This document shows, piece after piece, positions 1 to 14,166 of a stretch of 42,160 nt of DNA. The stretch lies in sequence record SRR31156797_1306. The stretch is one strand, 5' to 3'. The translations under genes and the position numbers were made by a program. The notes below the pieces were generated by a model that saw nothing but the letters and a program-made list of their open reading frames with translations, searched no databases and was not told the DNA's origin. Every line of letters starts with the position of its first letter. The first letter of the stretch is position 1.

Positions 1-660
1 TCCATCTCCATCTACAGTTAATGTATGATCCGTACCATCATTATACTTATAAGTAGCATTTACAGTAGCAGTTTTATCGGCAGAAACAACCGGCTTAAAC
101 TTCCAACTATTAACTGTACCTGTCATGGTAATGTTGAAATCTCTTGGAGTAGAACCCAACTGAGCGGCATCTGGAGTATTACCTGTAAATAAAGTACCTG
201 AAGCTGTATTACAACCATCAGCTGTAACAGCAGCAATCTGAATATCGAATGCATTAGGAATTACATCAATTTGAATTCTTCGCTTACTAATACAACGATT
301 TGCAGAGTATTCTTCAACAAATAAATAGTATGTTTTTCCACTCGCTGCTGCATTCCAAGTTATATTAATCCTGAACAAATTAGCAACATCAGTACTTTTA
401 TCCCAAGCATTATCTGCATTATCAACCTTTGTTACAGCATAATCACCATCGGTAGCCGCTATATCTCCAGCTTCATTTGTTGCTAAATACCATTTATAAG
501 TATTACCCACATGTACTGCTTCTTGAGTAGCTCCATTATCTGCAGAGTTCACAAAATAAATATGAGTACCTCCAACGTATGGATTTGTTCCTGATTGGGC
601 AAACACATTAATTCCTACAACCAGAAATAAAACAGTTATTATCCCTTTTAATAATTTCAT
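1..660 (-). CDS. Secreted Ig-like protein, paralog of the two ~270 aa neighbours (5' part only; runs off the window)
   Basis: Not in the ORF track. Hand translation from ATG at 660 gives MKLLKGIITVLFLVVGINVFA|QSGTNPYVGGTHIYFV...W...INITW...YYLFVEEYSANRCISKRRIQIDVIPNAFDIQI...GCN, open to position 1, with the same motif order as 683..1498 and 1527..2336. Confidence 0.9.
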   Translation of the reverse strand, partial: MKLLKGIITVLFLVVGINVFAQSGTNPYVGGTHIYFVNSADNGATQEAVHVGNTYKWYLATNEAGDIAATDGDYAVTKVDNADNAWDKSTDVANLFRINITWNAAASGKTYYLFVEEYSANRCISKRRIQIDVIPNAFDIQIAAVTADGCNTASGTLFTGNTPDAAQLGSTPRDFNITMTGTVNSWKFKPVVSADKTATVNATYKYNDGTDHTLTVDGDG

Positions 661-682
661 AATATTTAATTTTTACTAGTTA

Positions 683-1498
683 CTAATTAAAACGAATATT
701 CGATGTATTCGGAAGTGCATCAATTGTAAGCATTTGCTCTTTATTTCCAGTTCCATTATCTGGAGTAACAATTGAACCTATTTTGGCTTTACCATCTGAA
801 ATTTCTAATGTTACACTTTGAGCTATTGCAACAGGTCCCGATAATTCAACTTCAATCGTCACACTTTTTTTATTTCCTGGAATCGAAATCCCATTGTAAT
901 CGGTAACTCCACTAACTCCATTCACTGTTACATTATCAATTGAATAATCTACACTTGTTTTTGCTAGAGTAAAATCAAACTCCCAAGTATCAACTGGTAA
1001 AGCATATGTTACATCATCGAGGGTAACAGTAAATTGAACTGTTGTTGTTGCAGAAGCACCTTGAGCTAAAATATGGTTATCTTCATCATGACATTCATTA
1101 GCATTATCACCTGCTATTAAGAAGAAAGTATTACCCTTAACTGTAATATCCGCCGATCTTACAGAGATACAACCGCCAGCTGGTTTTGATTCCTTAAATT
1201 GAATCGTAAAATTAGGATTACCATCAGGACTAATAGAAGCCCAATCTTTATTCCAGGTAATAACCAGCTTTGCTTCATTTCCAACTTTTGTTTCAGCCAT
1301 AAAGACAGTAGGTTGAGAAGTTAAAGCAACCCCTGATGCATCAGCAACTATCCAAGATGCTGTATTATTTGTCCCATCTTCCATGGTAACCAAATATGTT
1401 TGCTGAGAGTTTTGATATGGATTTTGTGCATCCTGAGCAAATAGATTACTCGTCAAACCAATCAAAGTGGCAATAAGTACAATCTTAAATATTTTCAT
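683..1498 (-). CDS. Secreted beta-rich two-domain Ig-like protein, 271 aa, unknown function
   Basis: Signal peptide ending LFA|Q; Thr/Val-rich beta strands; two Cys; ends ALPNTSNIRFN. Confidence 0.85.
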   Translation of the reverse strand: MKIFKIVLIATLIGLTSNLFAQDAQNPYQNSQQTYLVTMEDGTNNTASWIVADASGVALTSQPTVFMAETKVGNEAKLVITWNKDWASISPDGNPNFTIQFKESKPAGGCISVRSADITVKGNTFFLIAGDNANECHDEDNHILAQGASATTTVQFTVTLDDVTYALPVDTWEFDFTLAKTSVDYSIDNVTVNGVSGVTDYNGISIPGNKKSVTIEVELSGPVAIAQSVTLEISDGKAKIGSIVTPDNGTGNKEQMLTIDALPNTSNIRFN

Positions 1499-1526
1499 GA
1501 TATATAGTTTTGTCGTTTTCAGTCAA

Positions 1527-2336
1527 TTAAAAAGTAATACCAGACGCAGCAGGTAGAGCTTTAACTATAGTAGAAGCAGTGTTCGTATTAGTGTCAGGAG
1601 TACCTTCAGCAGTTTTAGTTACACCATTTACGGCAAAAGCTTCTGATAATACAAGCTCTACTGTAACCTGTTCGTTCGCATTACCTGTAACATCAACTTC
1701 AATAGTACGTGTATCACCAACAGAAACACCCAAATCTGCATATTTTCCACCTGATTCAGTAAGAGTACTAGCTCCGATTCGCACTGCAGAAACTGAAGGA
1801 GAACCAGCTCCGGTAAGGTTTACTGCGAATTTATACTCCCATGTATCTATTGTCCATGCAGCATCCTTAGTCATACTAACGTCAAATGTCACAGTTGTAG
1901 TTGCATTATCATTCAAATTAGAAACCAAGTCATGCAATGCATTACATTGAGTTGAATTTCCTTCTGCAATTGTTACATCGAAAGAATTATTGGTCTTATA
2001 AACAACATCCAAAGTTCTTACAGTTGTACAAGAATTAGCTTCTTCAGTATATTGAATTGTATAAGTATGCTCAGCTACTAACCCCAAACCCCAAGTAATT
2101 TTTGCTTCACTATTAACACCAACTTTATTAACTGTTATTGTATAATGAGTACCAGCAGTCAAAGCAGTTGTTCCATCATAAACAGACCAAGTTATTGTAT
2201 TATCAATATCTTCTGCCTGTACTCTATAAGTATAAGTTGCACCAGCCAATGGTTTATCAGCTGTTTGCGCCAATGCCACATTAGTAAAAAGAACTAATGA
2301 AAAAAGTCCAATTAATGATTTAAGCAATGTTTTCAT
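1527..2336 (-). CDS. Secreted beta-rich two-domain Ig-like protein, 269 aa, unknown function
   Basis: Signal peptide ending ALA|Q; aligns by eye with the 271 aa protein (ITW, E..C..R, TTTVxFxV, DTWEx); ends ALPAASGITF. Confidence 0.85.
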   Translation of the reverse strand: MKTLLKSLIGLFSLVLFTNVALAQTADKPLAGATYTYRVQAEDIDNTITWSVYDGTTALTAGTHYTITVNKVGVNSEAKITWGLGLVAEHTYTIQYTEEANSCTTVRTLDVVYKTNNSFDVTIAEGNSTQCNALHDLVSNLNDNATTTVTFDVSMTKDAAWTIDTWEYKFAVNLTGAGSPSVSAVRIGASTLTESGGKYADLGVSVGDTRTIEVDVTGNANEQVTVELVLSEAFAVNGVTKTAEGTPDTNTNTASTIVKALPAASGITF

Positions 2337-2362
2337 AGTTTGTATATTTATTTTGTTATTTC

Positions 2363-4768
2363 TTAGAATGTTATTTCAGATGGATTAGGATTTGGTTTTA
2401 CACTAATAGATACTCCTGTATCCATGTCCAAGGTACACCCACCACGTTCCGCTCTAATTGTTATATTATATGTTTTTTCTGTATTTAATACTGTATTGTT
2501 AATGGTTAGAATCAAATCCGTTCCACTAACACTTGATACAAACGTTAATGAGCTTGTTCCTTCAAATAAGGAATAAGTAACATCTGCTTCATAATTTTCT
2601 ATCGTAATAACTCCTGAATCACCAAAGCAAATACCTGAAGTACTGATTGTTAAATTTGTAATTATTGCATCAGGCTCACTTACTGTAATATCTTTTTGTG
2701 CTACACAATTATTTCCATCCTTCACATACAAAGTATGAGTACCTGCTGGTAAATTAAATGTATTCAATGCCTGATAATTGATTCCATCATCACTATAGGT
2801 ATAAGAACCATCACCTCCACCAGCTGTAATAGTAACTTGTGCATTACTACCATTACAAATAATTGATTTGGTTTCGATTACATCAATTGTTACAACTGTC
2901 AATATTGTTACATCAAAACTACATGTTGCCGTATTACTTGCTCCATCAGTAGCCGTATATATTACTGTTGTAGTACCAACTGGAAATACATCTCCAGAAT
3001 TATGCGTACTTGCAAGAGTTGCAGAACAATTATCATTTGCTGTTGGAGCTGTCCAGGTTACTGTATTGGCACATGCACCAACTGTTATATCCGTTGGACA
3101 ATTAGTAAGGATAGGATCTTGATCATCGGTTACAATTACATCAAAACTAGAAGTAGTTTCATTAGTCCCATCAGTAGCTGTATAAGTCACAGTTGTTGAT
3201 CCTATTGGAAAATCATCGCCACTATTGTAATTCGAACTCAAGCTTACAGTTCCGCAATTATCAACAGCAGCAGGAGCATCCCAACTTACATGTGCTCCAC
3301 ATCTTCCATTTTCAGCAATAATCGGAATGTCATTTCGATCGTTAGCTGTACATCCTATCACTTCCACCTCTGCTAAAGAAAGATGATTACGAGCTGAAAG
3401 TTGAATCTTAACATATCTTGCAGAATTACCCGAGGTCAATATTCTTTTTAAATTTCCAGGATTACCTTCTACATAGTAACTTTCCACATTAGGATCAATC
3501 AATGCATCTGCAAGCGTTACACTTTGAAGATCATTATTAGATAGCATCACATAAAAATTCACCAATCTATCGGTACAACAATCTGTTCTACGAAATACAT
3601 TCACATAATTCACCGCTTCCTCTGCCCCTAGATCCACTTGCCACCATGCATTCACATCGTTATTAGTATGGGTAACCGAATTGTTAGCCCAAACTCCATT
3701 GGTATTTCCATCAACCGCTTTTGAGGCTGTACCATTAGGATAGGTACTAGACTGAATTGCTGTTTTTCCTATAGCGTAATTGGTAGATTCAAAACAAATT
3801 AGAGGAGCTATTCCACCATCCTGAACAGTAATTTTAAAACTCTCCTGAACAGAATTAGTTCCATCATTAGCTGTATATGTAACAATAGTTTCGCCAGTAG
3901 GAAATGCTTTACCTGAACTATGATTTGAAGTTAAAGTAGGTGTACCACAATTATCTGTTGCTGTTGGTTCAACCCAATTGACCACCTGCATACAATTAGT
4001 AACTAGAATATCAGTTGGCATATTAGTTATAACTGGATCAGTATTATCTTCTTGCCTAAGTTCTACATCGGCAGATTCGCTCCAACTCCCCTTAACAACA
4101 ATTGAATTATCTGTACTCAACACATATCTTATCTGAACTTTATATGTTGCAGGATCCAAATTATTGAAAATATGATTTAAATTATCGTTGATCCAATCAG
4201 TCTCAGAGCTTGCAGTTACATTAACCAACTTGTATTGAAGCTGTAAGACTGCAGGAACTGTTGCTGTAACTGACACACTAAGACTCCCCTTACCGGAAGC
4301 ACAAACAGCATGGGTTGGTACTGGTAAAACTAATATTGGTTTTTTATGAACATGAACTGTCAACCCAGGATTAGATACCCCAGTAGAACAAGCTGCAGGA
4401 TCAGCAGAAATTTCTTGAATTTTAAGACTATGGTTTTCTATAGTGTTGCCTCCAGATAAGCTCCACGTATAATTCAACAAAGCCCTATTGTAAGTTAGTC
4501 CTCCATGAATAACATTACCTCCACTTGCTGGTGGATCAATAGTGTTATTTGGAACAACTACATCTTTACCAGTCAAATGAACATCATCAACATACCATTC
4601 AACCGTAGATCCAGGGAAGCCAAACAAGGTATACTTAATTATTGTATCCGCACACACATGTTGATCTGTTGGGATATCATCACCAATATCCTGCCCACTC
4701 ACATGAATGAGTCCGGCAAGACAAATAAGTAGAAAGGATAGAATTATATGGCGTAAATGTCTAATCAA
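2363..4768 (-). CDS. Modular adhesin: N-terminal Ig module, HYR repeats, F-type (fucolectin/F5-8) lectin domain, SprB-like repeat
   Basis: TTG start; signal peptide VSG|Q; three HYR repeats (W..PTAxDNC...SGxxFPxGxTxVxYTAxD); lectin motifs AVDG and H-X26-RTDCCTDR; SprB-like ITAGGGDGSYTYS; ends VKPNPNPSEITF. Confidence 0.85.
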   Translation of the reverse strand: MIRHLRHIILSFLLICLAGLIHVSGQDIGDDIPTDQHVCADTIIKYTLFGFPGSTVEWYVDDVHLTGKDVVVPNNTIDPPASGGNVIHGGLTYNRALLNYTWSLSGGNTIENHSLKIQEISADPAACSTGVSNPGLTVHVHKKPILVLPVPTHAVCASGKGSLSVSVTATVPAVLQLQYKLVNVTASSETDWINDNLNHIFNNLDPATYKVQIRYVLSTDNSIVVKGSWSESADVELRQEDNTDPVITNMPTDILVTNCMQVVNWVEPTATDNCGTPTLTSNHSSGKAFPTGETIVTYTANDGTNSVQESFKITVQDGGIAPLICFESTNYAIGKTAIQSSTYPNGTASKAVDGNTNGVWANNSVTHTNNDVNAWWQVDLGAEEAVNYVNVFRRTDCCTDRLVNFYVMLSNNDLQSVTLADALIDPNVESYYVEGNPGNLKRILTSGNSARYVKIQLSARNHLSLAEVEVIGCTANDRNDIPIIAENGRCGAHVSWDAPAAVDNCGTVSLSSNYNSGDDFPIGSTTVTYTATDGTNETTSSFDVIVTDDQDPILTNCPTDITVGACANTVTWTAPTANDNCSATLASTHNSGDVFPVGTTTVIYTATDGASNTATCSFDVTILTVVTIDVIETKSIICNGSNAQVTITAGGGDGSYTYSDDGINYQALNTFNLPAGTHTLYVKDGNNCVAQKDITVSEPDAIITNLTISTSGICFGDSGVITIENYEADVTYSLFEGTSSLTFVSSVSGTDLILTINNTVLNTEKTYNITIRAERGGCTLDMDTGVSISVKPNPNPSEITF

Positions 4769-5079
4769 ATGCTCTCTTTTAGTGATTTTATAGTAGTTAC
4801 AGCGTTAAAATAAGCTATTTTTTTCCAATTTATAAACACCTATACGCGAAATGTTAAAAAGTGTTTACTTATTTATTGGTTAATTTCATAAATAAAGATC
4901 GGTCGCCCCGTTAAATCAATACGTTAATCATTCTTAAACAAGCACTCATAGTACCATAAGAGCACATTATCAATAAATATAATACACTCATCTATTAAAT
5001 AAATTTCTTCATCAATAGATTACTTCCAAAATCTAGATTGAAAATCAAAGAAATAAACTCTGTATGAACACAAAAAGGA

Positions 5080-5087
5080 CAAAGATA
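5080..5087 (-). promoter_or_regulatory. Putative Bacteroidota sigma-A -7 element for the 801 aa adhesin operon
   Basis: TATCTTTG on the minus strand matches TAnnTTTG; about 310 bp upstream of the start codon. Confidence 0.45.
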
Positions 5088-5515
5088 TTGAATGAAGATT
5101 GAAAAAAGAAGAGGAATTTATCTTAAATTGATAGAATTTCACAAAACAATTGACTATTCTTTTTTATAGAATTAAGAAAAACATTTAAAACACCTATATA
5201 TATATGGGTAAAAATATTGATTTTACATTCAAAATTCTATTCAATTTTTATTTTAAAAAATTTACAAATAAATATTATATTTTTCATTTTTGCTACGCTA
5301 CCTAAAGCATCTATTCTACCTCTCTATTTTTTTTCAATCTATTTTCTGTTTAAATTCATAAAGTAATTATGTGTTAGATACAACATCTATATACAACCGA
5401 TATTAATAAATCAAAATTTATATTAGAGTTTACTATTATCATCAATATAACGTACAATCGTCAATAAAACTCTACTATTACTTATTACACCAATTAAAAC
5501 CTAAATACGAATAAG

Positions 5516-8500
5516 CTAAGGATTTAATTGAAAAAAAATACCAACAGGTTTTGGCTGTTGCCCCACCTTAACATTAAGTTTTCCTACACACGATTTAGAA
5601 TCACTAACTGTTATTGTATATGTTTTAGGAGATAAACCAATCGCAACATTAGAATTAATTCCCCCATCATGACTCCATGAATAATCATACTCAGGTTCTG
5701 ATAATCGTGGTGTTCCACCATCTGCAACAACAGTAATTTCCCCATTAAATCCCTCAGAACAAAGAGTTGACAAGCCTAAATCTAACGTAAGATTCGGATT
5801 TGGGTAAACTTTAATTCCACTAATGCTTTGTGTAGAAAAACAAGAATTATCCGATGTTACTCTAAAAGTAAATGTCCTAGATGCTAATATGTTAGTTTCA
5901 GGTTTTGCAATAATATTCAATTGATTTGAAGAACCAACAATTTCAGAATTAGGAGTCCAGATATAAGTTGGGTTATTAGCATTACTAACACTAGCTGACA
6001 AATTAATATTTATACCACTACAAACATCCAATTTATCTGAATTCAATCCATTAATTACAGGTGTTGGTTTCACAACAACAATTACATCATCAGATGACTC
6101 GCATGCTTTTCCTACTCCATCCGAAACTGTTAATGTGTAAGTATAAGTATCAGCTAAAAGAGAAGATGAAATAGTAGGATTCTCTGAAGTAACGTCCATA
6201 TCTGTTAGACCTGCAGCTTTATCGCATGTCCAAAGGTAATCTATACCACCCGTTCCATTAAGCGTTTTGGAAGTTTCCTTCTCACACATCTCAAAATCAC
6301 TGCCCGCGTTTGCTTCTAGATCAGTAGGTTCCGGAATATTTATCGTGACATCTTTCGATTTACAAGAAAACTTATCTTTAATAGTTATTTTATGATCTCC
6401 CACAGTAAAAGTACCCTGAAATTTATTCTCAGGCTGAAATGCACCATCATCAAGTGAGTAAAAATAATTAGCAGGGTCAAGTCCATCCTTCAATTCTACA
6501 ATTATTGTTGATATAGGGGTTCCACCTCCACAAGTCACATTTGATATTGCATTTGCTTTAATCTCTCCAACATCCAAAATATCAATAGTTTTTCTAAAAT
6601 AGTCATCATCATCAGTACTACACGGACAACCTCTTAACACCTCAAACAAAATATTTTTTGCACCACTCACCTCATCACTAGCTATATAATAAATTTTAAT
6701 CTCTGATTGACCAATGGCAAATGTTATATCTTCGGGAAAATTACCAATTTTAGTTCCATCTTCAGTAACTTGATAATAATCGACACCATTTGTCGCAGAT
6801 CCACTTATTGTAACATGGAATTTATATTCCTCGTCCAAATTCTCCTTTCTTGTAAAACTAATATAACTTTTGTCACAACCACGGTACATAATCTCTTTGT
6901 CACCATCAAGTCCATCTATTTTATTTTCAACAGTAACCTCATTAGACTTAAAACTTTTAGCTTCCAAAAATACTGCTGAATCAAAATTATCATCTGCAAC
7001 ATCAGCAATTGCCAATTTAATATGATAAGTATTACACTTTTTCACATTATATGTTGCGGTTAAAATAATTGTACGTCCATCATATTCAATATCATAGGAA
7101 CCTTCTGTATTATAGACATCGCGTATTCTTCCTCCCTGATAAACAATACGCTCCCTATTTTGATTATCAACATACAAATGCGAGTTTACTGGAGAACAAG
7201 AAGTCTTATCAACCCAATTTGTTTCTCTATAGTATCTTCCTCTCCAATCACTAAAAGCTCCATTCGTATCATAAACCCTACTTACGGTGGTTCTGTCTCT
7301 TTCATAACCATGAACTGTGCTAATCATTACTGGAGTTGTACCATCATCCAAAAGAGCAATATTTTCAGCTTGTTTTCTGGATCCATCGTTAATATCTGGT
7401 CCACTTAATAAAAAGGCAAAAACATCATTAAAATTACTACAAGCATATTCCGCATACTCCTCCGATGCAAATACATATCTAAACTGAACTATATCTCCAG
7501 CTGGCATAAAATCAAATTCTAAAACAGAAGCATCATTTGTCTCAAGTCCTGCAATACTCGTTAAATGAGAATCTCCAGCTCCTCCAAATCCCGTTGAAGT
7601 TTCACTGTCATCATTTTCACCAACTGCATCAACCACATTTCCAGTAGAAAGAATAATCCCCTCGGCAAGAGGAAAATCCGATTCTCCTTTATTAAAATAC
7701 CCAATCTGTCTACTATCGCCTATAAAAGTTACATCACTAGCAGTTAAACAACCAGTTACTAATACATTTTGTACCAATTCATTTGGAGAACTACCAATAC
7801 TTGCATCTTGCGTATTTATTTCAATAGAAGCAGTTGATAGCGTGTTATCCTCTTCAACAGTCACTTCAACATTAAAATTCATTAAATTTCCATTTGCATC
7901 TCTAATTGTAAGTGTCACATTATTAACTCCGATATCAGAACTTGAAAAACTAGATTTACTCAAAGTTCTTGAAGTAACGCTACAATTATCTATAAAACCA
8001 GGATCAACATCTGCAGCATTAAGAGTAGCCACACCAGACGAGTTAAGCATCAAGGTTGTTTTAACCGTTGTATGATTCAAAATGGACGATTTAGAAAACA
8101 CCTCTCTTAATATTCCCGCATCTGAGGATTCCCATTCCAGTTCAATAACAGCCCCTCCTCCATTTTCATAATATTCCAATACAATCGTATGCTCTCCTTT
8201 AGTCAAATTTACAGTTCCGTTATTTGTTATTGGCGCATGATTAGTCCAATTATTTATGACATTCGAACCATCAATTAATAAACGCACCCCATCATCGGAG
8301 TTGGTATAAAAAGTGTAATCTCCTGCTTCAGAAATAACAAAATTTCCACTATAGCGAATTGAAAAATTATCATTGCCAATTAAACTGCTATTTGGAGATC
8401 CTCCTCCCCAATTATTATCAACCTCATCTACGGATTCAGAATATTTTAAATCATCAAAATTTCTTCCGTTGAAATATTCGGCATTCAAATTCAGTAACGA

Positions 8501-9511
8501 TGGCGCTATATCATCTTCCACCGTAACTGTAGATGTACAAGTAGATTGATTTCCATCCTCATCTTCAACCGTAAGTGTAACAGTATTCGCACCCAAATTA
8601 GAACAATCAAAAGTTGCCTTATCTATACTTAAGATCAAATTTGCACTAGATGTTTCGACATCATTACTCCCATCATTAATATCGTCAGTTGTTAAACTTG
8701 CATTTCCAGATGCATCCAATTGAACTGTAATATCCTTACAATTCGCATTAGGAAAATTTCCTATAGTTGCCTGAATATTTATTGAATAATCCTCCACTTC
8801 CCCTTTAAAGCCAGTATCGCAACTTTTGGGATAATTTTTAGCTCTATTTGCAGATACTCTCATTCTTGTTTGCCCCACTTGAGCGCCAACCGGTGCAGAA
8901 ACCCTCAACGGGGAATTTCCTGATAATCCATCAGTATTAGTAAAACCTAAATTATACTCTTCCCCCGAATCATTAAAGCTTCCATTATGATTCCAATCAA
9001 TCCAAGCCCTCGTCCAAACAGAATTCCCATTATCCGGTGTATTAACTCTAACACTTAAATCATAATCTCTTCCAATCATAACATCAGTAATAACTCCGGT
9101 ATTATCAGTATAAGAAGGTTTTCCTGATGTAGTTTCACTAATAGAATTAAAGCTAACATTTGTTATTCCAAACCGATTATTATTTTGACCATATGAAGAA
9201 CAATAGGTAGTAGATACAAGAGTTAGGGTGACAGGTCCAATGTATCCTGTAGCGGCATTCCAATAATATAGTTCATAATCCCCTTCATCCAGACCATTAA
9301 CATCTAACACATTTCTTTCCTGCCAAACCCCATCAAGCATCACCCATTTATCACCAATCACAGACCACGTGATAGAAATACTTCCATCATTACTAGTTGG
9401 TGAAGTTGGATGGGTAACGACAGCTGTCTGCGCTAAAAGCATTTCACTCAGCAAACATAATAACACAGTAACAAATACTAAAAAGAAATTTCTAAAAGAA
9501 TTGAGAGACAT
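5516..9511 (-). CDS. Large modular adhesin: GEVED, HYR-like repeats, PA14, choice-of-anchor L, Calx-beta-like and Ig/SprB repeats; no T9SS CTD
   Basis: Signal peptide LLA|Q; AWIDWNHNGSF...GEVEDY (GEVED); YTFYTNSDDGVRL...LEYYENGGGA (PA14); GIILSTG...DASVLEFDF...YVFASEEY...NDVFAF...YHIKLAIADVADDNFDSAVFL (choice-of-anchor L); ends QPKPVGIFFQLNP. Confidence 0.85.
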   Translation of the reverse strand: MSLNSFRNFFLVFVTVLLCLLSEMLLAQTAVVTHPTSPTSNDGSISITWSVIGDKWVMLDGVWQERNVLDVNGLDEGDYELYYWNAATGYIGPVTLTLVSTTYCSSYGQNNNRFGITNVSFNSISETTSGKPSYTDNTGVITDVMIGRDYDLSVRVNTPDNGNSVWTRAWIDWNHNGSFNDSGEEYNLGFTNTDGLSGNSPLRVSAPVGAQVGQTRMRVSANRAKNYPKSCDTGFKGEVEDYSINIQATIGNFPNANCKDITVQLDASGNASLTTDDINDGSNDVETSSANLILSIDKATFDCSNLGANTVTLTVEDEDGNQSTCTSTVTVEDDIAPSLLNLNAEYFNGRNFDDLKYSESVDEVDNNWGGGSPNSSLIGNDNFSIRYSGNFVISEAGDYTFYTNSDDGVRLLIDGSNVINNWTNHAPITNNGTVNLTKGEHTIVLEYYENGGGAVIELEWESSDAGILREVFSKSSILNHTTVKTTLMLNSSGVATLNAADVDPGFIDNCSVTSRTLSKSSFSSSDIGVNNVTLTIRDANGNLMNFNVEVTVEEDNTLSTASIEINTQDASIGSSPNELVQNVLVTGCLTASDVTFIGDSRQIGYFNKGESDFPLAEGIILSTGNVVDAVGENDDSETSTGFGGAGDSHLTSIAGLETNDASVLEFDFMPAGDIVQFRYVFASEEYAEYACSNFNDVFAFLLSGPDINDGSRKQAENIALLDDGTTPVMISTVHGYERDRTTVSRVYDTNGAFSDWRGRYYRETNWVDKTSCSPVNSHLYVDNQNRERIVYQGGRIRDVYNTEGSYDIEYDGRTIILTATYNVKKCNTYHIKLAIADVADDNFDSAVFLEAKSFKSNEVTVENKIDGLDGDKEIMYRGCDKSYISFTRKENLDEEYKFHVTISGSATNGVDYYQVTEDGTKIGNFPEDITFAIGQSEIKIYYIASDEVSGAKNILFEVLRGCPCSTDDDDYFRKTIDILDVGEIKANAISNVTCGGGTPISTIIVELKDGLDPANYFYSLDDGAFQPENKFQGTFTVGDHKITIKDKFSCKSKDVTINIPEPTDLEANAGSDFEMCEKETSKTLNGTGGIDYLWTCDKAAGLTDMDVTSENPTISSSLLADTYTYTLTVSDGVGKACESSDDVIVVVKPTPVINGLNSDKLDVCSGININLSASVSNANNPTYIWTPNSEIVGSSNQLNIIAKPETNILASRTFTFRVTSDNSCFSTQSISGIKVYPNPNLTLDLGLSTLCSEGFNGEITVVADGGTPRLSEPEYDYSWSHDGGINSNVAIGLSPKTYTITVSDSKSCVGKLNVKVGQQPKPVGIFFQLNP

Positions 9512-9752
9512 ATTATTACTTTTGACTTTTAAATAACAAATGGGGAATCAAAAATAAACATTTATCAATATTTTCATATCAATTAAAAAATTAATTTTAA
9601 TTAAAATTTTAAAATCAAGTACTACAATTACGATTTACATAAATTTTCAAATAAAACTCTTTAATTTAAATCAAACTATTTGACTTGTAAAGGAAAAACT
9701 TTAAAGAATTATTCATTTTTTAAAGCCGCTTCTGTACTTATATAAAATCATA

Positions 9753-10448
9753 ATGAAAAAATACAAACACATCTTCTTCGACCTAGACAGGACTCTCTGG
9801 GATTTTAATTCCAACTCTGAAATTACCTTAAGCCAATTGTATCGAGACTATCAATTGCAGCTAATTTTTGGAACATTTCTGTTTTTTAAGTCTAGATTTG
9901 AATACCATAATGGCAAACTATGGAATGCCTACTATCAAAATAGAATTAAAAAAGAGGATTTAATGTACAGAAGGTTTTATCTTACTTTAAAGGAAGCTGG
10001 AACCGATGATATTGATTTAGCAAAAGAAATAGCTCAAGATTTTATTGATATCAGTCCCTTACAAACCAAAACATTTCCATATGCACATGAAACTCTTCAG
10101 TATCTGAAAGAGAAAAATTATGAATTACATATTATTACGAATGGATTTAATGAGGTGCAAGGAAAAAAATTAAGAAATAGCAAGTTGGATTCGTTCTTTT
10201 CCCATGTAATCACATCGGAAGATGCCGGAGCCAACAAACCTTCACCAAAAATCTTTGAGCATGCATTAAAAATAGCCAATGCTACACCTGAAAATAGTTT
10301 AATGGTTGGTGATGATTTAAAAACGGATATAGCTGGGGCAAAAAATAGCAACATCAACCAAATTTACTTCAACAACCATAAAGTAAAACATGACAAAAAA
10401 CCAACTTTCGAAATTTTCAATTTAAAAGAATTACAAAACATTCTATAA
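9753..10448 (+). CDS. YjjG-family HAD noncanonical pyrimidine nucleotidase
   Basis: FFDLDRTLWDF, IITNGF, KP, MVGDDLKTDI HAD motifs. Confidence 0.9.
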   Translation: MKKYKHIFFDLDRTLWDFNSNSEITLSQLYRDYQLQLIFGTFLFFKSRFEYHNGKLWNAYYQNRIKKEDLMYRRFYLTLKEAGTDDIDLAKEIAQDFIDISPLQTKTFPYAHETLQYLKEKNYELHIITNGFNEVQGKKLRNSKLDSFFSHVITSEDAGANKPSPKIFEHALKIANATPENSLMVGDDLKTDIAGAKNSNINQIYFNNHKVKHDKKPTFEIFNLKELQNIL

Positions 10449-10536
10449 GTTTCAACCTGTAATCAATATTCGATGTTTTGCAGCATTTAGTAACATCTTT
10501 TAACATTTAAAACAGGATCTGTAAGTTTTCTTGTAT

Positions 10537-10544
10537 TACATTTG
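10537..10544 (+). promoter_or_regulatory. Sigma-A -7 element for the downstream ncRNA
   Basis: TACATTTG matches TAnnTTTG immediately before the structured region. Confidence 0.6.
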
Positions 10545-10549
10545 TGGCG

Positions 10550-10744
10550 GTAATAGTTACGATATGGTTCGCAAAGCCTGTCGTATAATCAACACCTTTA
10601 AGCTTGTATTAACTTTCATAAAATTCTAAAGGGTTAGTGAAGTTACTAGGTAAAGATCAACAAATGGTTAATAAAATATTGAGTTAGACCATACAAGTGG
10701 TGTTGATATAAAGGCTGTGTTTAGGGGACACAGCCTTTTCTTTT
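10550..10744 (+). ncRNA. Structured ~195 nt RNA, probable Bacteroidales-1-like RNA
   Basis: Bounded by a promoter and a terminator. Closing helices ATCAACACC(10588-96)/GGTGTTGAT(10699-707) and CTTGTAT(10603-09)/ATACAAG(10691-97). The core AACTTTCATA..CTAAAGGGTTAGTGAAGTT..TAGGTAA..AACAAATGGTT resembles the Bacteroidales-1 motif as I recall it. Confidence 0.7.
10710..10744 (+). terminator. Intrinsic terminator of the ncRNA
   Basis: AAAGGCTGTGT-7 nt loop-ACACAGCCTTT followed by a T-rich tail. Confidence 0.85.
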
Positions 10745-10753
10745 GCTTCTTTT

Positions 10754-10862
10754 TCCACAAACAGACACAAATTAACTCAAAACATATCTTATTAATATTT
10801 GTGTATATTAGTGAGTATCTGTGGATGAGAATTAATCCACGAAAACACTAATTAACACAAAT
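10754..10862. repeat. Three copies (forward, reverse, forward) of a ~30 bp repeat with internal 10-bp periodicity upstream of the GxxExxY gene
   Basis: 10754 TCCACAAACAGACACAAATTAACTCAAA; 10797-10826 reverse complement ATCCACAGATACTCACTAATATACACAAAT; 10835 ATCCACGAAAACACTAATTAACACAAAT. Confidence 0.8.
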
Positions 10863-11240
10863 GAAAAAGAATGAATTTCTCTACAAAAAAGAATGCTATC
10901 AAATTATTGGAGCTGCCATGGAGGTGCACAATGAACTGGGATGTGGATTTTTAGAAGCTGTTTATCAAGAAGCACTTGCAATTCTACTTGATAAAAAACT
11001 CATTCCTTTTGAAAAGGAGAAGGTATTAGATATCGCTTTTCGAGGTAACATATTAAGCAAAAAATACATTGCTGATTTCGTTTGTTTCAATGAAGTAATT
11101 GTTGAGTTAAAAACGGCCGATTCAATCCACACAGAACATATTGCTCAAGTCTTAAATTACCTAAAAGCTACCAATAAGAGAATAGGATACTTATTAATTT
11201 CGGTACTACTCGTCTTCAATACAAAAGAATTATCCGGTAA
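10861..11240 (+). pseudogene. GxxExxY protein (PD-(D/E)XK-like fold) with a 1-bp frameshift near the 3' end
   Basis: GCGFLEAVYQEAL, ADFVC, IVELK, AQVLNYLKAT. The family C-terminus LINFGTTRLQYKRIIR* is encoded in a shifted frame from 11190 to TAA at 11238-11240. Confidence 0.8.
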
Positions 11241-11246
11241 AACTTC

Positions 11247-11300
11247 ATCCACAAATAAATCATGGAAAATATTTGAGTGAATTTGTGTTAATTCGTGGAT
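11247..11300. repeat. Downstream copies of the GxxExxY-flanking repeat
   Basis: ATCCACAAATAA at 11247; 11271-11300 reverse complement ATCCACGAATTAACACAAATTCACTCAAAT. Confidence 0.8.
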
Positions 11301-11309
11301 ACTCATTTA

Positions 11310-12575
11310 TCAAGTTTTTCTTTTCTTCTTCTTTGCTGCAGGGAATAATACATTATTCAATATTAATCGATATCCCGCAGAGGTTTTCTTTAAATCCAAA
11401 TCAGTTGGCGGATCACCTACCAAATGTTGATAATCTTCCGGATCGTGTCCTCCGTAAAATGTCCAGGTACCTTTTCCATGTTTTCCATGAATGTATCTTG
11501 CCTCTCCTGCCGATTTATTCTCGCCCATTATTAATATACCAGGCTTTATCAATTTTTTATTAAATGCGGTTGTCTGCCCCATGAATCCTTTAATTAAATT
11601 TTTATGGTTCTGACAAAGCATTGTTGGAACAGGATCCCATTTGGCAGAAAATTCAAATAGACTAAAATAGTCCTCATCTCTATTCAGTTTTCGTGTTAAA
11701 GTAACATCAATATCCGAAAATTCATACACAAAAGGATTGGTCTCTAAGGTGAAATCAGTAAAAGCGAAAGTATTCGAATAATCCAATTTCTCCTGAGCAT
11801 GTGCATCAATAGGATCGCCATCGAAAACATGATTACAGATATCTGTATCACCTGCAGCTAATGAAATATCAAAAGTATCGGTAGCAGAACACATTGCAAA
11901 CAAAAAACCACCGGCCTCAACAAAATCTCTTATTCGTTGCGAAACAGCTTTTTTAAGATCCGAAGATTTTGAAAAACCAAATTGCTTAGCTCTCTCTAAA
12001 TTAGTTCTTACCTCATCTTTATACCATTGCATATTGCGATAGGAGGCATAAAATTTACCGTGTTGTCCAGTAAAATCCTCATGATGAAGATGTAACCAAT
12101 CGTAGGACTTTAACTTCCCGGTCATCACTTCCTCATCGTAAACAATGTCGTAAGGAATTTCGGCATAAGTCAAAGCCAAGGTAACTGCATCATCCCAGGG
12201 CTTTTTACCTTTTGGTGTATAAACAGCGATGGATGGAGCTTTTTCTAATTTCATGATATCCATATTTACCTCTGCACTGGATATTTCATTTGTTATTTTA
12301 GCAACCGAAGCATCAGAAAGAACTGTAAAACTAACACCTCTTATTTGACACTCATCTTGAATAGTTTTATTTAATGGTAGTAAAAATGATCCACCACGGT
12401 AATTTAAAAGCCAATGAATTTCATACTCTTTCTCAAGAGTCCAGTAAGCAATTCCATACGCCTTAAGATGATTTTTCTGGGTATCATCCATTTGAATTAG
12501 TAAGCTTGCTGAAAAACCTGAACATGCATAAATCAGCAAGTAAAAACTAAGTGCGAATTTCGAAAGGAATTTCAT
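11310..12575 (-). CDS. Conserved exported Bacteroidota protein with class I glutamine amidotransferase-like motifs (family often labelled asparagine synthetase B)
   Basis: Signal-like N-terminus; HLKAYG, PWDDAVT, WLHLHHEDFTGQ, GGFLFAMCSATD, YGGHDPED. Confidence 0.7.
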   Translation of the reverse strand: MKFLSKFALSFYLLIYACSGFSASLLIQMDDTQKNHLKAYGIAYWTLEKEYEIHWLLNYRGGSFLLPLNKTIQDECQIRGVSFTVLSDASVAKITNEISSAEVNMDIMKLEKAPSIAVYTPKGKKPWDDAVTLALTYAEIPYDIVYDEEVMTGKLKSYDWLHLHHEDFTGQHGKFYASYRNMQWYKDEVRTNLERAKQFGFSKSSDLKKAVSQRIRDFVEAGGFLFAMCSATDTFDISLAAGDTDICNHVFDGDPIDAHAQEKLDYSNTFAFTDFTLETNPFVYEFSDIDVTLTRKLNRDEDYFSLFEFSAKWDPVPTMLCQNHKNLIKGFMGQTTAFNKKLIKPGILIMGENKSAGEARYIHGKHGKGTWTFYGGHDPEDYQHLVGDPPTDLDLKKTSAGYRLILNNVLFPAAKKKKRKT

Positions 12576-12633
12576 AGATACAAATATCAGTGATGAAAAA
12601 ATTTTAAGGATTATAAATTTTCAACCAACTCAA

Positions 12634-14166
12634 TTAAAATGGAGGTGCATCTTCAAAATCACTTCCTCCAACCAAGCCAGCATTTAAATCATCGAAACCA
12701 CCCTGCTCCTGATTCATTCTTGAACTAAACGTCTTAACATCTTCAGGACTTTCATCACCGAAAGGATCCATACTTTCACCTTCCAAATCCATAAATCGAG
12801 CCAATTGATTACGGAATCGCAACTGAATTTCACCAACGGCACCATTACGGTGTTTGGCTATAATAATATCGGCAATACCAATTAATGAATTTCCTTCGGC
12901 ATCTTCTGTAATTCCATATCTTTCCGGACGGTGAATAAACAACACCATATCGGCATCCTGCTCAATCGCTCCAGATTCACGAAGGTCAGAAAGCATCGGT
13001 TTTTTCGCATCTCCAGTACGTTGCTCAACACCACGATTCAACTGCGATAGTGCGATAACCGGAATATTTAATTCTTTTGCAATAATCTTTAGCTGACGCG
13101 AGATTAAACTTACCTCCTGCTCACGATTCCCACGCATATCTGAACCAGCTGTCATCAGCTGCAAGTAGTCAATAATAACACAACCAATATCGTATTTGGC
13201 TTTTAATCGACGACATTTAGAACGCAACTCATAAATTGATAAACCTGGCGTATCATCCACATAAATCGGGGCTTCAACCAAGTCTTTAATTTTCACGTGC
13301 AATTGCTCCCACTCGAAATCCTCCAAACGTCCATTTCTCAACTTCTCCGATCCCAATTCCGTTTCACTGGAAATCATACGTTTTACTAGCTGGTCGCCAC
13401 CCATCTCCAGAGAGAAAATAGCAATTGGTGATTTATGAGTTACTGCCATATTTCGTGTCATAGACAATACGAAAGCCGTTTTCCCCATTGAAGGACGTGC
13501 CGCAATAATTACAAGGTCAGACTTTTGCCAACCTGAGGTTATTCTATCAAGTGCCATAAAGCCAGAAGGCACACCACTTAATCCATCGGGGCGTTTTCCA
13601 GCCTCAACAATTTGGTTGATTACCTCATCTGCCAAAGGTCTAATATGAGCAGATTCCTTTTTTATATTCCCTTCTGCAATGTCAAAAACATCCTGCTGGG
13701 CTTTATCCAGCAAATCTGCAACATCAACACTTTCATCGAAGGCTTGATTCTGAATCTCGGAAGAAACACGTATCAATTCTCTTTGAATGTGCTTTTGAGC
13801 AATTATTCTCGCATGAAATTCAATGTGAGCTGCAGAAGCTACACGGTTTGTTAGCTGTGTAATGTAAAAAGGTCCGCCTACATCGTCAAGCGTTCCTTCT
13901 CTTTTCAATTCTTCTGTAACAGTCAAAATATCTATAGGCTCTTCCTTTGTAGAAAGATTCATAATTGCCTTGTAGATTTTCTGATGAGCATCTTTATAGA
14001 ATGTCTCTGCATTTAGCAAATCACCAACTGAAATGATAGCATCTTTCTCAAGCATAATTGCTCCCAACACTGCCTCCTCAAGCTCTACTGCCTGAGGTGG
14101 AACCTTCCCATAATCAAGATCTACCTTATTCTTCGATTGATTTTTGTAATTATTTGCTCCAGCCAT
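12634..14166 (-). CDS. dnaB: Replicative DNA helicase
   Basis: PPQAVELEEAVLG, AARPSMGKT, IIDYLQLM, LSQLNR, SDLRESGAIEQDAD, IAKHRNG; no intein. Confidence 0.98.
   Translation of the reverse strand: MAGANNYKNQSKNKVDLDYGKVPPQAVELEEAVLGAIMLEKDAIISVGDLLNAETFYKDAHQKIYKAIMNLSTKEEPIDILTVTEELKREGTLDDVGGPFYITQLTNRVASAAHIEFHARIIAQKHIQRELIRVSSEIQNQAFDESVDVADLLDKAQQDVFDIAEGNIKKESAHIRPLADEVINQIVEAGKRPDGLSGVPSGFMALDRITSGWQKSDLVIIAARPSMGKTAFVLSMTRNMAVTHKSPIAIFSLEMGGDQLVKRMISSETELGSEKLRNGRLEDFEWEQLHVKIKDLVEAPIYVDDTPGLSIYELRSKCRRLKAKYDIGCVIIDYLQLMTAGSDMRGNREQEVSLISRQLKIIAKELNIPVIALSQLNRGVEQRTGDAKKPMLSDLRESGAIEQDADMVLFIHRPERYGITEDAEGNSLIGIADIIIAKHRNGAVGEIQLRFRNQLARFMDLEGESMDPFGDESPEDVKTFSSRMNQEQGGFDDLNAGLVGGSDFEDAPPF

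Follow-up and report, generated by a model that had tools for sequence, protein, structure and literature searches.

Several described systems offer a frame for the locus presented here. Type IX secretion system (T9SS) cargo follows a rule, given in PMC10202324, under which it carries a C-terminal domain (CTD). Type B substrates depend on a barrel whose gene lies directly downstream, and they remain bound to that barrel (PMC12618676, PMC9143113 and PMC10994853); pairs of cargo and cognate PorP/SprF protein include SprB-SprF of F. johnsoniae and PG1035-PorP of P. gingivalis (PMC9143113, PMC12618676 and PMC10202324), and SprC is described as moving on the gliding track (PMC12635249). In type V pili the pilin is a lipoprotein that a protease matures, with donor strands on base and stalk and none on the tip (PMC13655056). 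In chaperone-usher and Elr/WxL pili the donor strand is N-terminal, and assembly requires a chaperone together with an usher or a sortase (PMC13721041 and bioRxiv 10.64898/2026.10.17.759780).

Here we analyse a 42,160-nucleotide stretch of DNA from a marine bacterium (record SRR31156797_1306; the whole stretch is called the window), whose positions 1 to 9511 hold a locus of small immunoglobulin (Ig)-like proteins and two large adhesins. From sequence comparison and structural models we consider it probable that these proteins form a head-to-tail chain, with lectin-bearing tips at one end and, at the other, a CTD-bearing base held on PorP. The further claim, that the chain is covalently locked by disulfides and that its CTD-less subunits are exported through the T9SS behind a single type B CTD, stands in our estimate at about an even chance. 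A literature search, with subscription papers and supplements outside its coverage, found no description of such a fibre. The locus would represent a new fibre class built from known parts, a label that depends on the mechanism inferred below.

Tailed subunits and the order of genes in related loci

All four complete locus proteins, including the 1331-amino-acid (aa) adhesin, end in a tail of the form P-x4-I followed by two to six residues, a feature absent from the first-pass annotation of this DNA. In the subunits it occupies the last 8-12 residues, with the consensus P-x-[TP]-[SG]-x-I. Of the 55 chain genes that precede the CTD gene across the related loci that we fetched, 54 end in the pattern P-x4-[ILVF]-x0-6, against 7 of 57 other complete open reading frames (ORFs) and 0 of 28 other window proteins.

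A 13-sequence profile of the subunits recovered at least 411 representatives (50% clustering) at E <=0.001, and the best 150 of the 411 were examined. From these we retained 121 proteins with a single module (235-352 aa) and 32 fusions of two modules (540-625 aa); excluded were 12 identifiers, comprising the two adhesins, some fragments, one near-duplicate and a repeat protein. The family tail closes all 32 fusions and 119 of the 121 single-module proteins (8-12 residues from the proline to the end), the latter count being biased by a search profile that included the tail. P, T and I are kept at 119, 104 and 109 of these 119 tails, in sequences that are ~25% identical, and some subunit types have similar tails. 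The 32 fusions (P0025-P0097) end in a distinct type, P-Q-x-G-x-L-x-G-V-D, which suggests a dedicated acceptor. An organism was named for five clusters among 20 proteins looked up, in each case from the Marinifilaceae or Prolixibacteraceae; family members occur in Prolixibacter bellariivorans (WP_025865110.1) and Ancylomarina sp. DW003 (WP_275123374.1). Marinifilum and Prolixibacter both belong to the Marinilabiliales.

A relative of the window locus comes from an uncultured Marinifilum sp. (L001), the only one among 80 pattern matches in a GTDB scan, with proteins 93-100% identical to the window's. A metagenome scan using a head-motif pattern that did not contain the tail returned 17 loci, 15 of them real: L006 and L016 were discarded as chance matches, and L018 is a duplicate of L013. 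Beyond the point at which the window is cut, L001 completes the third subunit and continues with four further tailed subunits, a base that combines a head with a type B CTD (TIGR04131) and a porP/sprF barrel gene (TIGR03519). The run comprises 11 co-oriented genes with gaps of 9-100 bp, apart from two wider ones that follow the first gene (744 bp) and precede porP (212 bp). The first-pass annotation had guessed that export or anchor genes lie left of the window and had named PorP/SprF and a type B CTD protein as candidates; L001 carries both, the CTD protein first and the barrel gene after it.

The same ending recurs in all seven 3'-complete loci (L001, L002, L011, L012, L013, L014 and L015), where a CHU_C protein is followed by PorP_SprF; the remaining loci are cut off by contig ends. 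Each of the seven CHU_C proteins starts with a head-profile match (E 4e-12 to 0.011, 140 sequences searched). At the other end of the run, the first gene has no N-terminal head match in five of the six loci where it is complete. First genes are mutually unrelated in content (HYR, Ig_7, MBG, C-type lectin, laminin G), and all of them carry the tail. The number of shaft genes per locus is two to seven.

Because the tail is common to all subunits, the 1331-aa protein included, this protein would be the distal tip, acting as donor only, and the chain would end on type B cargo; the system would therefore be tied to the T9SS although the five window proteins have no CTD. A pilus-like assembly with the 1331-aa protein at one end had been proposed from the window alone, and the shared tails and the distribution of heads and tails across loci support it. 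The accompanying claim that the proteins fit neither type V pili nor the T9SS survives in part: they have no CTD or lipobox of their own, yet the CTD base and porP argue against their being unconnected to the T9SS.

The tip shows further variation. The first 300 residues of the 1331-aa protein (window 8612-9511) are 76-85% identical to L001 and the remainder 93-100%; contigs of runs X2 and X10 also diverge within window 8612-9511. On this comparison the N-terminus is the fast-changing end of the protein and the putative distal tip of the chain. One contig of run X10 joins 5137 to 9758, as if a related strain had no 1331-aa gene at all, although a short side of 30 letters makes this weak. In L002 (4648-8939) there are two near-identical tip paralogs of 636 and 633 aa, which differ at their N-termini and have the same last domain and tail. 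They adjoin genes (9759-13932) that resemble, by eye, plasmid mobilisation genes. A tblastn search of plasmids gave no match.

Subunit order is conserved. L001 and L010 share five orthologous subunit positions in identical order, and across loci the 'RPxTxGI' subunit type always comes after a type-1 subunit. This suggests programmed pairing, and an ordered heteropolymer would fit it at least as well as a long homopolymer. If an Ig domain spans about 4 nm, a stalk containing each of the seven two-domain subunits once would measure an estimated ~60 nm. We regard as doubtful, and count within the probability given to the chain, the variant in which the same link joins copies of a single small subunit, or of several such subunits each with its own kind, into a long pilus that varies in length and has major and minor pilins. 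The presence of head and tail on every shaft subunit makes self-polymerisation topologically possible, and both the likeness of tails in some subunit types and the varying number of shaft genes would suit it. Against it stand the kept order of subtypes, the need for the whole chain to ride on a single CTD, and RNA contigs that single out no major subunit. These contigs, of 150-350 bases and from two studies, map to the locus without implying its transcription or level.

Head domain, fusions and cysteines

Aligned to the 11 PKD_6 repeats of P0166, a continuous type B cargo protein, the head profile covers the repeat from position 14 through its last position (hhalign probability 94.5% in global and 96% in local alignment, E 1.6e-8). 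Atlas feature matches of the head to PKD_6 reach 0.86-0.88; the Pfam PKD_6 model (PF19408) has no match on the subunits. The 13 repeat positions absent from the head carry P-x-P-G-x-I-x-G, which by eye resembles the P-D-P-G-T-I-T of tip tails. The stalk would resemble a giant T9SS type B adhesin divided into genes at a fixed point within an Ig domain.

We are now able to propose how such a chain might be assembled. Subunits would cross the inner membrane by Sec, with a cleaved signal of SPI type. The tail of one subunit would then supply the missing first-strand segment to the head of the next, and a disulfide would most likely join the Cys that opens the last domain of the donor to the last-hairpin Cys of the acceptor head, both docking and locking probably taking place in the periplasm. 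The single CTD of the base would take the chain through the T9SS translocon. Carrying a head and no tail, the base would bind its own PorP/SprF barrel through the type B CTD; since a type B substrate stays on its cognate barrel, base and PorP would anchor the chain, with glycan-binding-type domains at its far end. Those domains would be contributed by the tip proteins (1331 aa, perhaps also 801 aa), which carry a tail and no head.

The fusions offer a view of the junction within one polypeptide. In 26 of the 32 the internal tail is kept and matches the junction pattern, with a 13-residue linker in 22 of these 26. An AlphaFold2 model of fusion P0029 (32 sequences) has a predicted local distance difference test score (pLDDT) of 88 and a predicted template-modelling score (pTM) of 0.74; the internal tail block reaches pLDDT 97, as against 69 and 48 for the free terminal tail. 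Ig matches of the second head (1p53, 4wgk, 8s80) begin at 291-293, inside the tail, and those of the first head at 27-28. The second domain is cohesin/CnaA-like (Z 13.5, root-mean-square deviation 2.7 A, 131 residues aligned). The single-subunit model (13 sequences; pLDDT 67, pTM 0.47) has a poorly ordered tail.

Comparison with known folds and families returned generic likenesses. A Foldseek search of the monomer model, as proposed in the first-pass annotation, gave only generic two-Ig matches with template-modelling score (TM) <0.3 and no characterised family among the listed matches; the fusion model gave generic tandem-Ig chains, the best at TM 0.33 among the matches listed. In a PDB sequence search the window subunits had a best E no better than 1.2, and the small subunits and 15 fusions reached the cut-off of no family in Pfam or NCBIfam. 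A WxLIP_PGBD match on the 269-aa protein was rejected at 20 bits against a cut-off of 27. In the Atlas, the head of the 269-aa protein (window 1983-2267) matches in structure a cluster of 107-aa phage proteins (TM 0.71) and a phage head-completion cluster (TM 0.75), a likeness that is probably that of the shared Ig fold only.

The cysteines provide a second line of evidence. Each PKD_6 repeat has one early Cys and one Cys in its last hairpin. In the Ig topology these lie at opposite poles of the domain, and should therefore pair across neighbouring domains. In the single-module proteins the head-hairpin Cys and the first-strand Cys of the second domain are each present in 121 of 121; a Cys occurs in the first-strand region of the head in 0 of 121 and in the last hairpin of the second domain in 4 of 121, and 97 of 121 subunits have exactly two Cys. 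By this pattern the two kept Cys would face one another across the subunit junction. Consistent with this, the fusions keep all four Cys in 27 of 32 cases, have lost both junction-flanking Cys in 4, one of them in 1 and an outer Cys in none (Fisher p 1.4e-4 for co-loss, uncorrected for kinship), and a FastTree tree built without the Cys columns places two independent co-losses (supports 1.0 and 0.94). The head Cys is kept in all seven bases, and that of L011 has no further Cys for 336 residues. On the donor side, 14 of 14 tip or first proteins examined by eye have a Cys 69-115 residues ahead of the tail Pro, a placement also common in internal domains. Taken together, a disulfide between subunits is a well-supported prediction, and Cys1251 of the 1331-aa protein would be the partner of the head Cys of the next subunit.

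These data also bear on what else the tail might be. It could be a short tag for sorting or for binding a chaperone (either a T9SS signal of a new kind or a segment bound by the CTD protein or PorP), with subunits exported one by one and no chain formed, and this we consider improbable. Its place at the extreme C-terminus, where sorting signals also lie, with 8-12 residues from Pro to end, and its poor order in the monomer model would suit such a role, whereas a tag would hardly be found internally in fusions, ordered there and followed by a near-fixed linker. Nor would it explain why the base carries a head and no tail, or why junction cysteines are lost together. Least probable to us is that the proteins are independent two-domain Ig/cohesin-like monomers, or members of non-linear complexes, with an in-chain disulfide and a tail left as a relic of gene splitting. 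The frequency of exactly two Cys per subunit and the cohesin-like second domain, a fold with other partner-binding modes, are compatible with this; a relic, however, would not hold P, T and I so firmly amid such divergence, nor recur on unrelated tip proteins (HYR, Ig_7, MBG).

The chain might also form and remain periplasmic, or expose only its base and a few subunits, so that its role would be structural and not adhesive. This too we judge improbable, marginally more so than the tag. In its favour, all five window proteins are without a CTD, and our literature search gave no case of T9SS export of CTD-less passengers. The tips, however, bear PA14, F5/8 type C, C-type lectin or laminin-G domains and the fastest change lies at the distal end, both of which argue for exposure; furthermore, the base carries its head on the N-terminal side of the CTD, and this head would lie outside together with the remainder of a type B cargo protein.

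Several observations nonetheless weigh against a chain joined by tails, locked by disulfides and anchored on a type B base. The fusion-junction profile does not align significantly to PKD_6 (hhalign probability 1.7-23%), and for that reason the likeness of tail and first strand is one seen by eye only. In DSSP on the P0029 model the internal tail strand comprises two residues, 298-299, so that the tail would be an extended segment with a short ladder and not a long donor strand of the chaperone-usher kind; its hold without the disulfide may be weak. The junction co-loss amounts to only two events, and a bent subunit with an in-chain bond between Cys110 and Cys136 is a possible alternative. The tail pattern also matches the CTD ends of two bases (L014, L015), the family tail count carries the bias already given, and the first gene of L012 is an exception with a weak N-terminal head match (E 0.007). 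Base and porP were seen in a 93%-identical relative and not in the window's own genome. Finally, no self-capping strand or chaperone is seen that would keep the heads soluble before assembly.

Window genes and their surroundings

The features of the locus are collected in Table 1. The first-pass annotation had reported five co-oriented genes with Sec signals cleaved before Gln, without lipobox or T9SS CTD, and this description holds. Minus-strand ORFs of 1331, 801, 269, 271 and at least 220 aa are present, and A/G|Q ends were seen by eye in all five proteins. The h-region Cys of the 1331-aa and 801-aa proteins is preceded by Leu/Ile (sequence and regular expression), and type A and B CTD models of Pfam and NCBIfam are unmatched on the five. 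The small proteins are paralogs as claimed (269 versus 271 aa: 30% identity, E 9e-20, with a supporting alignment). Pfam likewise finds carbohydrate-binding-type domains in both adhesins called lectin-type, their binding being putative.

Table 1. Positions of the putative chain genes and of features within them (window coordinates)
Feature	Position	Strand	Description and basis
1331-aa protein, putative tip adhesin	5516..9511	-	Sec signal, C-terminal tail, no head domain
Domains of the 1331-aa protein			GEVED 168-245, PA14 343-466, choice-of-anchor L 579-854 (residues), Ig/PKD-like; Pfam/NCBIfam
Tail of the 1331-aa protein	5519..5554	-	P1320-x4-I1325 + 6 residues; putative donor segment; sequence and tail statistics
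Cys1251 of the 1331-aa protein	5759..5761	-	Start of last domain; by eye, transferred from L001 orthologue
AT-rich gap, 747 bp	4769..5515	none	Between 1331-aa and 801-aa genes
801-aa adhesin	2363..4768	-	TTG start; N-terminal Ig-like module, F5/8 type C 339-461 (residues), three HYR, tail
Tail of the 801-aa protein	2366..2389	-	P794-x4-I799-T-F; sequence
269-aa putative shaft subunit	1527..2336	-	Head ~24-116 (Cys103), second domain cohesin/CnaA-like (Cys131), tail P262-I267
271-aa putative shaft subunit	683..1498	-	Head 22-123 (Cys110), second domain (Cys136), tail P263-I268
Head of the 271-aa subunit	1130..1435	-	PKD_6-like Ig without first strand, putative acceptor; hhalign
Tail of the 271-aa subunit	686..712	-	Putative donor segment
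Third putative shaft subunit	1..660	-	5' 220 codons, runs off window; 293 aa with tail in L001

The two adhesins differ at their N-termini. That the 1331-aa protein is without the shared N-terminal module was correctly noted, as no head domain is found on it. The module of the 801-aa protein was said to be akin to the small paralogs: the motif order (Y, W, xTW, E, C) is there, but a significant match to the head profile is not (no hmmsearch match; hhalign probability 0.7-1.6%, E 0.03-0.04). This adhesin could serve either as an adaptor or as an alternative tip. In favour of a tip are the 747-bp gap that precedes its gene, an N-terminal module 36% identical to the first gene of L012, the occurrence of two head-less tip paralogs in L002 and, weakly, the X10 contig that skips the 1331-aa gene; in favour of an adaptor is the kept hairpin Cys. 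Its type of tail is also found on tip genes of L004, L009, L010 and L012.

The gap between the adhesin genes probably divides two transcription units. Within it, a match to TANNTTTG, a motif not enriched in the window, lies at 5080-5087 and is weak evidence. Promoter and terminator scans of the window gave counts no higher than in shuffles, and this applies also to a terminator-like hairpin with a T run at 5542-5560, which overlaps the tail codons of the 1331-aa gene. DNA repeats in the window are codon-level echoes only, for example of the HYR repeats.

Elsewhere in the window, a PD-(D/E)XK gene (PDDEXK_3, window 10861-11280) lies between a HAD hydrolase gene and a 421-aa gene. L001 has no ORF of at least 100 aa at this place, so that the gene looks like a recent gain or loss. 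The 421-aa protein (11310-12575), which starts with what looks like a signal peptide and matches no family in Pfam or NCBIfam, is conserved in L001. The rest of the window (12634-42144) holds ordinary housekeeping genes (DnaB, GHMP kinase, carboxyl transferase, Tgt, Ddl, GcvP, prolyl oligopeptidase and others).

Implications and comparison with known systems

If the proposed mechanism is true, Bacteroidota would have a further class of fibre beside type V pili, the pilus class described as unique to Bacteroidia, and a family of at least 411 representatives with no Pfam or NCBIfam entry would leave the cell by covalent hitch-hiking. Such a fibre would display swappable glycan-binding-type tips and use disulfides between its subunits, the nine-residue tail serving as a general plug through which interchangeable adhesin tips are loaded. 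The same rule might explain the presence of SprC and SprD beside SprB, and of unexplained genes upstream of type B adhesins more generally, and secretome predictions for the T9SS that are based on the CTD would overlook such proteins. Additionally, a tail that plugs into a head and is locked by a disulfide is a possible tool for protein coupling.

Among described systems, the T9SS provides the anchor. As in type B systems, the last two genes of the related loci encode a type B CTD protein and PorP/SprF, and the assembled chain would have the same topology as a single long cargo protein of Ig repeats, for example P0166. Unlike type B cargo, which is a single polypeptide with its own CTD, the nine upstream proteins of L001 have no CTD match and are predicted to hang on the base; the subunits were accordingly rejected as T9SS cargo in their own right, since CTD models match neither the five window proteins nor the remaining subunits of L001. 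In layout, the locus can be likened to sprC-sprD-sprB-sprF of F. johnsoniae, where other genes also lie upstream of a type B adhesin and its barrel. Pfam and NCBIfam gave no match naming SprC or SprD on locus proteins. The L001 PorP has one C-tail Cys where SprF has Cys-x-Cys. This Cys precedes P-K-F in the PorP proteins of L001 (17886-18944) and L012 (8607-9659), and four other locus PorPs have no Cys; it could allow a disulfide to a GldK/PorK track.

The subunits themselves invite comparison with pilins. The locus is like type V pili (FimA, Mfa1) in its occurrence in Bacteroidia, in two beta-sandwich domains per subunit and in a C-terminal donor strand, here a putative one, and unlike them in that the tip has a tail and the base has none, which gives the opposite polarity, and in its predicted anchoring through CTD and PorP. 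A type V pilus was rejected on the missing lipobox in the five proteins (a lipobox expression matches 1 of ~168 proteins) and on this polarity. No type V pilin was matched by Pfam or by PDB sequence, or found among the listed fold matches, the best of which is a cohesin (Z 13.5); heads start 4-6 residues past the point where the signal is cleaved, and inspection by eye shows no anchor strand that could be removed. With chaperone-usher and Elr/WxL pili the locus would share an Ig fold completed by a neighbour's strand and a division into tip, shaft and terminating base. It differs from them in a donor that is C-terminal and short, in the predicted disulfide between subunits and in complete loci without a chaperone or usher gene; no usher or chaperone family matched any of the 11 co-oriented L001 genes. 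These pili were set aside for a conserved free segment that is C-terminal, a head without an N-terminal strand and the missing usher and chaperone in L001. CryoSeek TLP-1 was rejected as a match for its N-terminal donor strand. The head is homologous to the PKD_6 (PF19408) repeats of Bacteroidota proteins, from which it differs in having neither the first 13 positions nor the first Cys. Overall, our comparison suggests that the locus probably combines the working principle of a strand-complemented pilus with the anchoring of a type B T9SS adhesin.

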